Origin: a virus
Lineage: Duplodnaviria > Heunggongvirae > Uroviricota > Caudoviricetes
Length of the DNA: 64,000 bases
Virus record (IMG/VR): IMGVR_UViG_3300028734_000016
Strand: one strand, 5' to 3'
Shown here: positions 6,435 to 49,725 of the stretch, piece after piece
Position numbering within the stretch: position 1 is the first letter of the stretch
How the letters are laid out: each line of letters starts with the position of its first letter
The notes under the pieces: model-generated
Database searches by the model: none
Seen by the model: only the letters and a program-made list of their open reading frames with translations
Told to the model about the DNA's origin: nothing
Made by a program: the position numbers and the translations under genes

Positions 6435-6976
6435 TACATATTAAAAAATTCGAATTCTACGATACCAAAGAATTTACACGTGATTCAGAACCAGAAATAA
6501 ATGATTACGTTAGACTTGATGAAGATTTCTATGAATCTAAAATACCTGAATATTTTATACCTAGAGAAAATGACACAGACTATAAATATAGAATAGGTAA
6601 AATAATTGGATATAATGAACATACAGAACACTATAACGTTAAATTTGATAAATATGAATTGTGGAATAATAATTTTTTAGTTAAACGTGAACAAATAAAA
6701 AGCTATTCTAAAAAAATTGAAGATCTGGAAAATCTGCCATCTGTTGGAGATTATTGTCTGCTTGGTTGGGATAATACGGAATTGTGTAAAGTAATAAAGA
6801 AAGAAAGAGTTGAAAATTTTAGATGGGCTTCAATTGATTATAAGGTTAAAAAAATGAATCCTGGTCCTCACGATGGCACAGGAATTGTTCAAACTGATGA
6901 TGATTCAATGAAATATTGGTCAAGCGATATAAATGATATGAAATCAATTATAGCATCAAAGAAATTTAATGTGTAG
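6431..6976 (+). CDS. hypothetical protein (MIHIKKFE...KKFNV); TAG stop overlaps tRNA 3' end
   Basis: 181-aa ORF, family-type termini. Confidence 0.6.
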   Translation: MIHIKKFEFYDTKEFTRDSEPEINDYVRLDEDFYESKIPEYFIPRENDTDYKYRIGKIIGYNEHTEHYNVKFDKYELWNNNFLVKREQIKSYSKKIEDLENLPSVGDYCLLGWDNTELCKVIKKERVENFRWASIDYKVKKMNPGPHDGTGIVQTDDDSMKYWSSDINDMKSIIASKKFNV

Positions 6977-7046
6977 CTTGAGAGGGATTCGAACCCTCAC
7001 TGAAACGCATTTGAAACGCCGTCCTCTGCCGTTGGGATACCAAGCC
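6975..7046 (-). tRNA. tRNA, anticodon loop UUCAAAU (CAA, leucine-type), short variable loop, A73
   Basis: hand fold: 7-bp acceptor (G1·U72), perfect T-arm GAGGG-TTCGAAT-CCCTC, anticodon stem rich in G·U; identity uncertain. Confidence 0.5.
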
Positions 7047-8145: not shown

Positions 8146-8249
8146 ATTATTTTTTATTTTATATATAAAAAATTCTATGACAAAAAGAATAAAAATTGAA
8201 CATATTTTTAAATAAATTGTATCATAATGATTAATCATTGAATATATTG

Positions 8250-8337
8250 TACTCCTGGTCGGACTTGAACCGACACGCCTACTATTGTTCAGCACATGTT
8301 TCTAAAACATGGATGTCTACCATTCCATCACAGGAGC
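8250..8337 (-). tRNA. tRNA-Leu (anticodon TAG), type II with long variable arm, A73
   Basis: hand fold: acceptor GCTCCTG/CAGGAGT, D-loop GGAATGGTAGAC, anticodon stem CATGT/ACATG loop TTTAGAA, T-arm GTCGG-TTCAAGT-CCGAC. Confidence 0.85.
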
Positions 8338-8346
8338 GATTTTTTG

Positions 8347-8433
8347 TACCGATGACGGGACTTGAACCCGTATAAGCATATAGCTTGCAAAATTTTAAGT
8401 TTTGAATGTCTACCAAGATTCCATCACATCGGC
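8347..8433 (-). tRNA. tRNA-Leu (anticodon TAA), type II, A73
   Basis: anticodon stem CAAAA/TTTTG loop CTTAAAA; ~16-nt variable arm; T-arm ACGGG-TTCAAGT-CCCGT. Confidence 0.85.
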
Positions 8434-8441
8434 ATATTTTG

Positions 8442-8521
8442 TACTCCTAGAGGTATTCGAAACCTCATCCAAATGGACATCATCTTAAGTGATGCGTGTA
8501 TACCAATTCCACCATAGGAGC
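8442..8521 (-). tRNA. tRNA, anticodon TAA (leucine-type) with only ~11-nt variable region, A73
   Basis: acceptor GCTCCTA/TAGGAGT, Leu-like D-loop GGAATTGGTATAC, anticodon stem CATCA/TGATG loop CTTAAGA, T-arm GAGGT-TTCGAAT-ACCTC. Confidence 0.6.
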
Positions 8522-23478: not shown

Positions 23479-23913
23479 TCATATTATCAATTTACCATTG
23501 ATATGATCAAATTGATGTTGAACAGCTATTGAGTTCAAATCTTTTAATGTCAACAATTTATAATTCCAATTTATATCATAATATTTAATCATAACAATTG
23601 ACCTTCTATTAATAGGAAATTCCAAATTAGGTAAACTTAGACATCTCTCCTTATTTTGAATAAAAAGTCCATCAAGATATATTTCTGGATTAATAAATAC
23701 TTCCTTTAAATCAGGATTATCAATTATAAATAAATTTAAATTGTGTCCAACTTGAGGAGCAGACAATCCAAATTCAAATTTGTGATAATTAAGAGTTTCA
23801 AACATGTTTTTGATTAAGGAAAGTAGAAATGGATTCTCCTTTTTTACGTTCACGTTTATTTTTCTTAATTTTCCTGAGTTTAAATCATCATATTTAATTA
23901 TATCTAAAATCAT
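23479..23913 (-). CDS. def: peptide deformylase homolog with HQxDH in place of HExDH
   Basis: motif 1 GLSAPQVG, motif 2 ERCLS (metal Cys present), motif 3 QHQFDH; codon 23512-23514 is CAA (Gln) where the catalytic Glu is expected. Confidence 0.8.
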   Translation of the reverse strand: MILDIIKYDDLNSGKLRKINVNVKKENPFLLSLIKNMFETLNYHKFEFGLSAPQVGHNLNLFIIDNPDLKEVFINPEIYLDGLFIQNKERCLSLPNLEFPINRRSIVMIKYYDINWNYKLLTLKDLNSIAVQHQFDHINGKLII

Positions 23914-24131
23914 TTACCGTGCTTCTTTTCTTTCTTCTTTTCTTTAATTTCAGATTTCTCAATCGTCTTTTCTTCTAATTTCTCAGATGTTTCTGATTTG
24001 AAAAAATCCTTATATTCTTTTTTTGAACAATATTTCCATCCTTGTTCAATGTAAGATTTTATTGATACAACATCATTTATACTAGCATCAGGTAATTTCT
24101 TAAAGGTGTCTTTTTTTCTTAAAATTTTCAT
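23910..24131 (-). CDS. hypothetical small lysine-rich protein
   Basis: 73-aa ORF. Confidence 0.4.
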   Translation of the reverse strand: MKILRKKDTFKKLPDASINDVVSIKSYIEQGWKYCSKKEYKDFFKSETSEKLEEKTIEKSEIKEKKKEKKHGK

Positions 24132-24159: not shown

Positions 24160-24414
24160 TTATACTAAATTTAATCTATTTAGTTTGTCTTTTCTTTCTT
24201 TTCTTTCAAATTCATTGGGTGACAAAAACATTGTTCCTAATGGATTTACAAATAATACATGTTTTGCGTCAGATAATATTCTAAAATGATCTAAGTTAGT
24301 TATTTTTCCTTTGTAAATACAACAAATTTCATATGTTTTACCAATTGTTAAATATTTTTCATATCCTCCTGTATTATCAATACACACAACTTCATCTCTT
24401 TTTTTAAAATTCAT
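24160..24414 (-). CDS. SH3-like small-protein family member (...ERKDKLNRLNLV tail)
   Basis: RDEVVCIDNTGGYEKYLTIGKTYE core. Confidence 0.55.
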   Translation of the reverse strand: MNFKKRDEVVCIDNTGGYEKYLTIGKTYEICCIYKGKITNLDHFRILSDAKHVLFVNPLGTMFLSPNEFERKERKDKLNRLNLV

Positions 24415-24676
24415 TTGATAATAAATTATTTATATTTTCTAATTTTTCTTTTCTTTGAATTTTTTTATATTCAGTAGTTGATATAAATCTACTTAAAAAA
24501 ACAGTAACTCGTCCTTCATCAAAATCATCTGATTTTACTTGAACATGATAAGCACCATCTATTTTATCAATATACATAACTTTATAAGATTCTCCAATTG
24601 TTAATGAATTTTCATATCCTCCATCATTTCTAATACAAATAACTTTATCTCCTTTTTTATAATTTGTGTTATTCAT
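24404..24676 (-). CDS. SH3-like small-protein family member (...QRKEKLENINNL tail)
   Basis: KGDKVICIRNDGGYENSLTIGESYK core. Confidence 0.55.
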   Translation of the reverse strand: MNNTNYKKGDKVICIRNDGGYENSLTIGESYKVMYIDKIDGAYHVQVKSDDFDEGRVTVFLSRFISTTEYKKIQRKEKLENINNLLSNEF

Positions 24677-26450: not shown

Positions 26451-27128
26451 TTATAATTTTAATTTTTTGACTCCTTTTGTTGCTGTTTCTTTAATATGAG
26501 TGAAATTTCGAATATCAATACCAACATCAGAATCAGATGGATCAATATAATATGTGTGTGTTCTGAAATTTACTTTATATAACAAATTTGCTGCAGGATA
26601 AACTTGTAATGATGTTCCAATTACAATAAGAATATCTGCTTCTTTTGTTAATTTTTCAGCTTTACCCATATTTGGTACATCTTCACCGAACCAAACAATA
26701 TGTGGTCGTAATGTATCACCATTTTCATCTACACTATCTGTTTGAATATCAAAGTCTTTTGGCCAATCATAAACAGTATTATTGTTAAATGCTCTCATCT
26801 TTGTTAATTGTCCATGGAGATGTAACACATTTGTACTGCCTGCTCTCTCATGTAAATCGTCCACATTTTGCGTCACTATCTGAACATCATATTTCTGTTC
26901 TAATTCAGCAAGAAAGTAATGTGCAGAATTAGGTTCTACTGTATCTAATTGTTTATGCCTTTCATTGTAAAATTTTAATACCAATTTTCTATCTTTCCTC
27001 CAACCATCAATCGTTGCGACGTCTTTAACATCATATTGCTCCCAAAGTCCGTCAGAATCCCTGAAAGTTTGAATTCCGCTTTCTGCACTTATTCCAGCAC
27101 CAGTAAATACTACTATTTTCTTTTTCAT
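26451..27128 (-). CDS. cobB: Sir2-family NAD-dependent deacylase (CobB-like sirtuin)
   Basis: GAGISAESGIQTFRDSDGLW, QNVDDLHERAG, LHGQ; 225 aa. Confidence 0.85.
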   Translation of the reverse strand: MKKKIVVFTGAGISAESGIQTFRDSDGLWEQYDVKDVATIDGWRKDRKLVLKFYNERHKQLDTVEPNSAHYFLAELEQKYDVQIVTQNVDDLHERAGSTNVLHLHGQLTKMRAFNNNTVYDWPKDFDIQTDSVDENGDTLRPHIVWFGEDVPNMGKAEKLTKEADILIVIGTSLQVYPAANLLYKVNFRTHTYYIDPSDSDVGIDIRNFTHIKETATKGVKKLKL

Positions 27129-48621: not shown

Positions 48622-49725
48622 TTAATTTTTAAGCATGTGAGCCAATTCAATAGTCATTGCTATACTCCAACTTAGAGGATTATTATCATTTGGAGTTTTT
48701 GTTCCATGATAATACAATTCGGGTATTTCATAGTCAATAGATTCATTTACAATTTTTTCATAAAAATATTTTGCTTTCTCTTTTTCCCCTAATTGACAAT
48801 ATATTAAGCCTAAATAGCTTAGTCCGAATAACCAAGTTGCTTCGCCATTTGTGTTATAATATTTATCATCTAAATATCTATATACTCCATTCTCATCTAA
48901 TAAATTATCCTCTATATTTTTTAATATAGTTTTTGACATTTCTACAGTTAATAAATTAAATGGATAGATAAGAAATAATTGAGCTAAATCATATTTTCGT
49001 GTTGGTGTTTCATTTGGTAATATACCATTCAATGTTTCAATACCATTTTCTATTAAATGTTCAGGAATATTGACGTCAATTTTATCACACATTTTAATTG
49101 ATGTTAATCCAGCAACAATCACTCCAATAGTAGATGCTCTTGGCGCCTCTTTACCTTCTTCCCATGCACCAGATTCTGGTACAGTATGATAATCAATAGC
49201 ATCTAATAATTTAATCACAGTTGATATAATATCGATGTCAGTTTTATCTCTAATTATATTTAACCCATTTTTTTCACCAATAGCTATTCCATATAGAAAA
49301 TATCCTATTTGATCAATTTGAATATGATTCCAACCAGAATGAATTTCTGTTAAATCTATATTTATTCTTGGATTTGGAAATTCCCAATCAAAATCTATTT
49401 TTTTCTTATTGATTAGAGATGAAAATTTTCCATATTGTGTTTCAATATTTTTATAATAATCTAACCAGGTTTGATATGTTTGAATATATTTTTCTGTATC
49501 ATTCCACAATTCTGGAAATGAACAAAAAAAATTATCTCTCAACCAACTATAACTATAATCGTTAGAAACTGATGCTTTATAAAAACCATTAGGTAATCTT
49601 AACTTATGTAAAACCTCAAATAAATTTTTGATATCTAAATCTAATAATGTATTGTAAAAGTCATTATATTTTTTACTGGTTTTAAATTTTCTTTGAAAAT
49701 ATATTCTATAATGTTCATCTGACAT
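48622..49725 (-). CDS. glycoside hydrolase family 15-like (glucoamylase-type) protein
   Basis: SWLRDNFF and PESGAWEEG motifs resembling GH15 W-x-RD and catalytic WEE segments. Confidence 0.5.
   Translation of the reverse strand: MSDEHYRIYFQRKFKTSKKYNDFYNTLLDLDIKNLFEVLHKLRLPNGFYKASVSNDYSYSWLRDNFFCSFPELWNDTEKYIQTYQTWLDYYKNIETQYGKFSSLINKKKIDFDWEFPNPRINIDLTEIHSGWNHIQIDQIGYFLYGIAIGEKNGLNIIRDKTDIDIISTVIKLLDAIDYHTVPESGAWEEGKEAPRASTIGVIVAGLTSIKMCDKIDVNIPEHLIENGIETLNGILPNETPTRKYDLAQLFLIYPFNLLTVEMSKTILKNIEDNLLDENGVYRYLDDKYYNTNGEATWLFGLSYLGLIYCQLGEKEKAKYFYEKIVNESIDYEIPELYYHGTKTPNDNNPLSWSIAMTIELAHMLKN

Follow-up and report, generated by a model that had tools for sequence, protein, structure and literature searches.

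The gene described here, from a huge, uncultured phage, encodes a mini peptide-deformylase homologue in which the catalytic glutamate of the HExxH motif is replaced by glutamine. The protein is strongly selected, so that it probably still functions, though with normal enzyme activity slight or absent. The gene lies in a 64,000-nucleotide stretch of DNA from a Caudoviricetes virus (IMG/VR record IMGVR_UViG_3300028734_000016), the whole of which is referred to here as the window. Since the deformylase fold, the metal ligands, motif 1 and purifying selection have all been kept, the protein appears still to be useful to the phage, and on the strength of sequence comparisons it is reasonable to regard it as a functional protein other than a normal deformylase. 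We see an even chance that it is a selected, catalytically crippled protein of the deformylase fold that would act by binding a ligand, in a metal-dependent way, at its former active site.

Fold and active-site motifs of the window protein

The 144-residue protein matches the Pfam family PF01327 (Pep_deformylase) over residues 4-144 with an E-value of 1.5e-30 and a score of 106 bits against a cut-off of 22.8, and its sequence matches about 80 distinct solved deformylases in the PDB, the top matches being the Plasmodium falciparum structures 1rl4 and 1rqc (E ~3e-17). An AlphaFold model, built with 27 relatives, is confident (pLDDT of 92, pTM of 0.86), and comparison of this model with many solved deformylases by Foldseek gave TM-scores of 0.85-0.91 and rmsd values of 1.4-2.4 Å. 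Profile and fold both match, and the gene is a genuine deformylase homologue, as the initial annotation had recognised from the letters of the DNA. The protein scores below the curated cut-offs of all six NCBIfam deformylase models, including the equivalog model TIGR00079, on which it reaches 80 bits against a cut-off of 103.95.

Alignment with solved deformylases places HQFDH exactly opposite their HEFDH, ERCLS opposite EGCLS and GLSAPQ opposite GLSAPQ, the last also being found in the Plasmodium deformylase 1rl4. Cys91, His133 and His137, which correspond to the metal ligands Cys90, His132 and His136 of the E. coli enzyme, are all present. Gln134 takes the place of the general acid/base residue Glu133 of E. 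coli, Glu47 that of Gly43, Arg90 that of Gly89 and Ile143 that of Phe142, and the chain ends at Ile144, the equivalent of E. coli Met143, four residues past the glycine of motif 3 and one residue short of the GKLIID end of its relatives. Thus the main readings of the initial annotation, HQxDH in place of HExDH, arginine at the usual glycine of motif 2, and an intact motif 1 together with the cysteine of motif 2 and both histidines of motif 3, are all recovered when the protein is set against characterised deformylases, and direct translation gives the glutamine codon CAA that it had assigned. No other HExxH occurs in the whole 144-residue translation or in the alignments, and a true HExxH elsewhere in the protein is therefore rejected. 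Of the features associated with a competent enzyme, neither the EGCLS form of motif 2 nor the first glycine of motif 1 (G-phi-G-phi-AAxQ) is found in the window protein; both are imperfectly conserved even in presumably active enzymes (PMC12690207). The coordinates of these features, and of the other genes mentioned in the text, are collected in Table 1.

Table 1. Positions of the deformylase gene, its motifs and other features. Positions refer to the window unless a contig label (L) precedes them.
Feature	Position	Strand	Basis or remark
Mini peptide-deformylase homologue, 144 aa	23479-23913, including stop	-	Pfam PF01327, AlphaFold, Foldseek
Stop codon TGA of the deformylase ORF	23479-23481	-	Translation
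C-terminus GKLII, no C-terminal helices	23482-23496	-	Alignment with relatives, E. coli and Vp16
Motif 3, HQFDH; metal-binding His133 and His137 kept	23503-23517	-	Alignment
Codon CAA for Gln134, aligned with the catalytic Glu133 of E. coli	23512-23514	-	Alignment, alleles
Motif 2, ERCLS; metal-binding Cys91 kept, Arg90 at the usual Gly (E. coli Gly89)	23635-23649	-	Alignment
Motif 1 core GLSAPQ, residues 49-54	23752-23769	-	Direct translation, alignment
Glu47 in place of the first motif-1 Gly (E. coli Gly43, Arabidopsis PDF1B Gly41)	23773-23775	-	Alignment
73-aa ORF, stop overlapping the deformylase start (ATGA)	23910-24131	-	ORF list, synteny
Three small flanking ORFs, 84-90 aa	22338-22601; 24160-24414; 24404-24676	-	
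SIR2-family protein	26451-27128	-	Pfam, E 1.9e-46
Four tRNA-Leu genes (anticodons CAA, TAG, TAA, TAA)	6973-7046; 8249-8521	-	Three tightly clustered
Protein with S1 RNA-binding domains, 385 aa	40005-41162	-	
Glycoside hydrolase family 15 (glucoamylase-like) domain protein	48622-49725	-	Unusual in a phage
ClpB-like double-AAA chaperone, full-length, 842 aa	50154-52682	-	
Fusion of SbcD-like metallophosphoesterase and SbcC/SMC-like ATPase, 1251 aa	56518-60273	-	
IS1595-family DDE transposase, related phage contig	L010:219-1118		About 3.5 kb upstream of a Gln-type deformylase
P0201, 148-aa mini-deformylase	L149:3350-3796		
Rhodobacterales paralogue, Rhodobacter capsulatus SP18	L036:499-969		
Rhodobacterales paralogue, Paracoccus zeaxanthinifaciens	L040:916-1380		About 100 more examples in L028-L147
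Third tandem deformylase copy, Paracoccus	L040:1336-1833		ETCLSRP and QHLADH, Leu for the catalytic Glu

The catalytic glutamate, Glu133, is reportedly the residue that abstracts a proton from the water on the metal and hands it on to the leaving amine, a role attributed to it by Rajagopalan and co-workers in 2000 (as cited in PMC8712518). Glutamine can form hydrogen bonds but cannot shuttle protons, and Glu-to-Gln replacements in some other zinc hydrolases leave measurable activity. The initial annotation took a Glu-to-Gln change at this site to inactivate deformylases; a literature search for E133Q, or for a Glu-to-Gln change in any deformylase, found no data on this substitution and Glu-to-Ala data only. 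Among the papers listed for the term pseudoenzyme together with deformylase, none mentions peptide deformylase.

Selection, order of the changes and genomic setting

Six other assemblies, made from different JGI and ENA samples, contain the window gene without a single nucleotide difference. The Gln form is represented by eight distinct nucleotide alleles in 20 loci and all eight read CAA at the catalytic codon, with alleles separated from that of the window by 56-66 nucleotide and 12-19 amino-acid differences (amino-acid divergence of up to 13%). The base call at 23514, at which the initial annotation had allowed for a sequencing error, is therefore sound, and such an error is rejected. The three sister-clade orthologues P0005-P0007 (four alleles), the next relatives and 70-74% identical to the window protein, carry GAA at this codon, and a single G-to-C change accounts for the replacement. 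The Glu-to-Gln change is real, common to a small clade of related phages, and fixed.

Pairwise dN/dS within the Gln clade (Nei-Gojobori) is 0.06-0.13 at dS 0.5-0.9, indistinguishable from the 0.08-0.13 of the Glu-bearing sister clade, and the reading frame is intact in every Gln-form copy; decay as a pseudogene is rejected on these values, which hold at dS up to 0.9. The protein thus combines two marks of a pseudo-deformylase, a missing catalytic residue and purifying selection. Across 23 aligned Glu-bearing relatives, 25 columns do not vary, and the five Gln-clade proteins keep 24 of these, Glu134 alone being changed. None of the 31 sites that vary inside the Gln clade falls in an invariant column (hypergeometric P = 0.0012), and the positions that vary tend to be those that vary in the relatives as well (Spearman 0.39, P = 1e-6). 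When only the nine core active-site residues are counted, their invariance in the Gln clade falls short of significance (a chance probability of about 0.11). Constraint on the active site is inseparable from constraint on the fold. The branch of the Gln clade is without marked lengthening, its mean identity to outgroups being 62-64% compared with 63-65% for the sister clade. When the Gln and Glu clades were compared by a McDonald-Kreitman-type test, fixed nonsynonymous to synonymous differences stood at 18/4 and polymorphic ones at 72/87 (P = 0.0013); we place no weight on this result, since near-saturation of synonymous sites within the clades leads to an undercount of the fixed synonymous differences.

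Glutamate at position 47 is already present in the Glu-bearing proteins P0005, P0006 and P0008, and arginine, lysine or glutamate is found at position 90 of the Glu-bearing sisters P0005-P0007; the canonical motifs were therefore left stepwise. By this comparison the replacements of Gly43 by Glu and of Gly89 by Arg or Lys (E. coli numbering) are older than that of Glu by Gln, and the arginine of motif 2 is separate from the Glu-to-Gln event, since sisters with an intact glutamate also carry Arg, Lys or Glu there. The changes specific to the clade are only Gln134 and the loss of the terminal Asp, by which GKLIID became GKLII.

The window has a G+C content of 21-27%, and close relatives of the deformylase gene lie on seven IMG/VR viral contigs of 58-235 kb, with the exact protein also being recorded on contigs of up to 711 kb. 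When 24 kb of the window were compared with the GenBank phages by megablast, a 124-bp match was all that was returned. The NAD-dependent DNA ligase of the window is closest (42%) to the ligases of the uncultured phages LR745206 and LR756502, of 635 and 642 kb, and further genes encode a T4 gp9/10-like baseplate protein and collagen-like tail fibres. Deformylase is already known among the translation genes of huge phages (Al-Shayeb et al. 2020, PMC7162821), and the largest phages of that study belong to the 'Mahaphage' clade with Bacteroidetes as predicted hosts. The ClpB-like chaperone and the S1-domain protein are further protein-quality and translation genes of the same phage. Leucine tRNA genes, an SbcCD-like fusion and a glycoside hydrolase are also encoded in the window, and a transposase gene accompanies the Gln-type deformylase of one related contig (Table 1).

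A small ORF of 73-78 residues lies directly upstream of the deformylase in all relatives, whether of the Glu or the Gln form, and the order SIR2, the small ORF, deformylase and NAD ligase, with other genes between, is identical around both forms, which are therefore orthologues. Among the related phages examined, nearly all have the SIR2 gene at a conserved place a few genes upstream of the deformylase, and the L010 and L011 contigs lack it. The SIR2 gene gave the sole Pfam match among the neighbours, the small ORFs near the deformylase, including that of 73 residues, giving none. The three small flanking ORFs share an N-terminal motif, KKGDKV/KRDEVV/KKGEKF-(V/I)CI-(R/D)N..GGYE...IG.(S/T)Y, and appear from it to be a family of tandem paralogues without a Pfam match.

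Searches for a second deformylase found none in the 64-kb window (tblastn with four queries) and none within 20 kb on each side of the LR756502 ligase gene. No Gln-bearing contig appeared twice in the scan of IMG/VR relatives among the best 80 of 560 loci, and an AT-rich HExxH DNA pattern scan returned no Gln-bearing contig among the matches listed.

Comparison with active and degenerate deformylases

In viral deformylase loci outside the Gln clade, the glutamate, the cysteine and both histidines are kept in 75 of 75 cases (from the best 80 of 560 IMG/VR loci), and two DNA-pattern scans of IMG/VR for QHQxDH(L/I/F)xGK returned the Gln clade only, together with one false positive. Among 150 representatives of clusters at 50% identity, 143 carry Glu, one carries Gln (P0201) and one carries Asn (P0206). 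P0201 is a mini-deformylase with ETCLN and QHQYDH that is 40% identical to the window protein; it is known from one 4-kb contig, where a sequencing error is possible, with small genes for YqeY, guanylate kinase and a SEC-C protein on the same strand. P0206 is a 180-residue homologue that keeps the cysteine (ENRCLS), has QHNIDH, in which Asn stands in for the catalytic Glu, and possesses a C-terminal helix. Judged by their sequences, these variants, with Gln or Asn for Glu and the cysteine kept, are of independent origin elsewhere, and the pair hints at a recurrent, unrecognised class of putatively non-catalytic deformylase-fold proteins.

In bacterial genomes the same QHQxDH(L/I/F)xGK pattern was found at at least 120 loci, and about 105 of the matches listed belong to one Rhodobacterales paralogue of about 165-195 residues. 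This paralogue reads QHQIDHLxGK at motif 3 and EASPNLPG where EGCLSxPG is usual, so that both the glutamate and the cysteine are lost; it has a full basic C-terminal helix and adjoins a canonical def gene. It scores 112.9 bits on TIGR00079, above the cut-off of 103.95, and is named peptide deformylase for that reason. A third tandem copy, with leucine for the catalytic glutamate, was observed in Paracoccus. Tandem deformylase clusters in Rhodobacterales were reported in 2025 and their rationale was called elusive (PMC12690207), and inactive type 3 deformylase paralogues are described for S. aureus and S. pneumoniae (Margolis 2000/2001, as cited in PMC12690207). Given the type 3 and the Rhodobacterales paralogues, degenerate deformylase homologues are a known phenomenon, and all three kinds, the window protein included, have a deformylase fold with substituted catalytic motifs, have been long retained and carry the annotation 'peptide deformylase'. 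The Rhodobacterales paralogue shares with the window protein the glutamine for the catalytic glutamate, but it has no metal-binding cysteine and a long basic C-terminal helix, whereas the window protein has all three ligands and no helix; likewise, the paralogue is a copy beside a canonical def, whereas the window protein is, as far as the available DNA extends, a changed orthologue. The phage case is thus set apart from the known degenerate deformylases by its three metal ligands and by being a modified orthologue, not an obvious extra copy.

Among active enzymes, the closest in architecture is the deformylase of Vibrio phage Vp16, a protein of 137 residues (PDB 5mtc) that is active in vitro and in vivo (Grzela et al. 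2017, PMC5591237). Both it and the window protein are phage-encoded, type-1B-like and without a C-terminal domain, ending just past motif 3, and in both the residue matching E. coli Phe142 is an Ile, which is rare there; indeed, the features given for the Vp16 kind, absence of the eta3 and alpha3 helices, an end at about E. coli 142-143 and Ile at Phe142 (PMC5591237), are all found in the window protein. The Vp16 enzyme has the canonical HExxH, EGCLS and the first glycine of motif 1, whereas the window protein has HQFDH, ERCLS and Glu for Gly43. The Glu-bearing mini-deformylases P0005-P0083 (54-74% identical) of related huge AT-rich phages have the same neighbourhood, length and 24 invariant residues as the window protein but keep Glu134 (GAA) and end in GKLIID, where the window protein has Gln134 and GKLII.

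Possible function and significance

In the explanation that we prefer, the gene is the orthologue of a mini peptide deformylase of 144-145 residues, without a C-terminal domain, in a group of very AT-rich huge phages. In one sub-lineage a change of GAA to CAA swapped the glutamate of HExxH for glutamine and the last residue, Asp, was lost, while the deformylase fold, all three ligands of the metal and motif 1, which binds the substrate, have been kept under purifying selection as in the Glu-bearing sisters. Little or no deformylase turnover would be left, because glutamine shuttles no proton and because Gly43 and Gly89 are replaced by bulky charged residues. If turnover is indeed lost, the retained metal ligands and motif 1 would suggest that the former active site binds a ligand in a metal-dependent manner, with formyl-methionyl N-termini the most plausible candidate, and it is from this binding that the phage would benefit. 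That the protein is such a natural 'substrate-trap', in which an intact metal site recognises fMet without hydrolysing it and serves as an fMet reader or shield during infection, is a suggestion that we make tentatively. Several points count against the binding reading, among them the activity left by Glu-to-Gln in some other zinc hydrolases: conservation of the whole active site is equally expected of a slow but real enzyme, and stoichiometric binding of N-termini seems an expensive mode of action.

In its pseudo-enzyme proposal, the initial annotation had also envisaged binding to the ribosome or nascent chain and competition with the host Def. The pseudo-enzyme part agrees with the glutamate's loss, the retention of the ligands and motif 1, and the low dN/dS; the ribosome-binding and competition part finds no support in the sequence because the C-terminal helix is absent. 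The E. coli deformylase docks on the ribosome by its C-terminal helix (PMC5591237, PMC12690207), and this alpha-helix, which inserts near uL22 and bL32, is missing from the window protein and from all of its relatives. The equally short Vp16 deformylase works in vivo without C-terminal helices (PMC5591237), and by analogy their absence would not prevent the window protein from acting on nascent chains, the binding of which is plausible.

A protein with the same conserved active site could also be a deformylase that still works, either more slowly or with, for example, the nearby Glu47 or Arg90 compensating for the lost base through proton transfer or a lower pKa of the metal-bound water, a possibility that we consider real though doubtful. 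Both Glu47 and the charged residue at position 90 predate the Glu-to-Gln change, which is the order expected if the catalytic group had migrated, and Glu47 is present in all five Gln-clade proteins, with one sister having Gln there; yet bulky side chains at the Gly43-equivalent of Arabidopsis PDF1B (G41Q/M) lower kcat/Km about 1000-fold (PMC3101196), and P0201, the independent Gln-bearing homologue, has Gln and not Glu at the equivalent of position 47. Purifying selection and the pattern of conserved sites unchanged from those of the Glu-bearing relatives, and a rate that did not accelerate after the change, are likewise what a compensated enzyme would be expected to show.

We consider it improbable that the protein has a moonlighting or regulatory role away from the old active site, for example through the binding of a host or phage protein by another surface. 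There is precedent in the naturally active B. subtilis DefA, of which a non-catalytic role outlasts loss of the glutamate: the E133A (Glu-to-Ala) form, used as an inactive control, yet protects cells by inhibiting the kinase PtkA independently of catalysis (PMC11194573). A candidate partner would be the conserved 73-residue ORF to which the gene is translationally coupled, but that ORF stands equally beside the Glu-bearing orthologues and so does not explain the switch from Glu to Gln. The metal ligands and motif 1, moreover, are unchanged in all Gln-clade sequences, with a divergence too small for this to be decisive. An artefact at 23514, or a recently inactivated gene drifting to loss, is scarcely credible, for although one base change would suffice and the terminal Asp is also lost in the Gln clade, the identical gene in six other assemblies, CAA in all eight alleles, the dN/dS of 0.06-0.13 and the intact frames speak against it.

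In viral metagenomes, few auxiliary genes are as abundant as those for phage deformylases, whose assumed role is to boost deformylation in the infected cell. A selected phage lineage that gave up the catalytic base and kept the rest would give this fold a second, non-catalytic use in infection, and the significance would be modest if the window protein were merely a slow enzyme. In phages, as in Rhodobacterales clusters, the annotation 'peptide deformylase' is not to be read as enzyme activity. Were the protein an fMet reader or shield, it could alter the fate of nascent host or phage proteins, through their processing, their degradation by way of fMet-degrons or sensing by the host deformylase, and the preferred explanation, if true, would provide a ready-made natural trap for studying the recognition of formylated N-termini.
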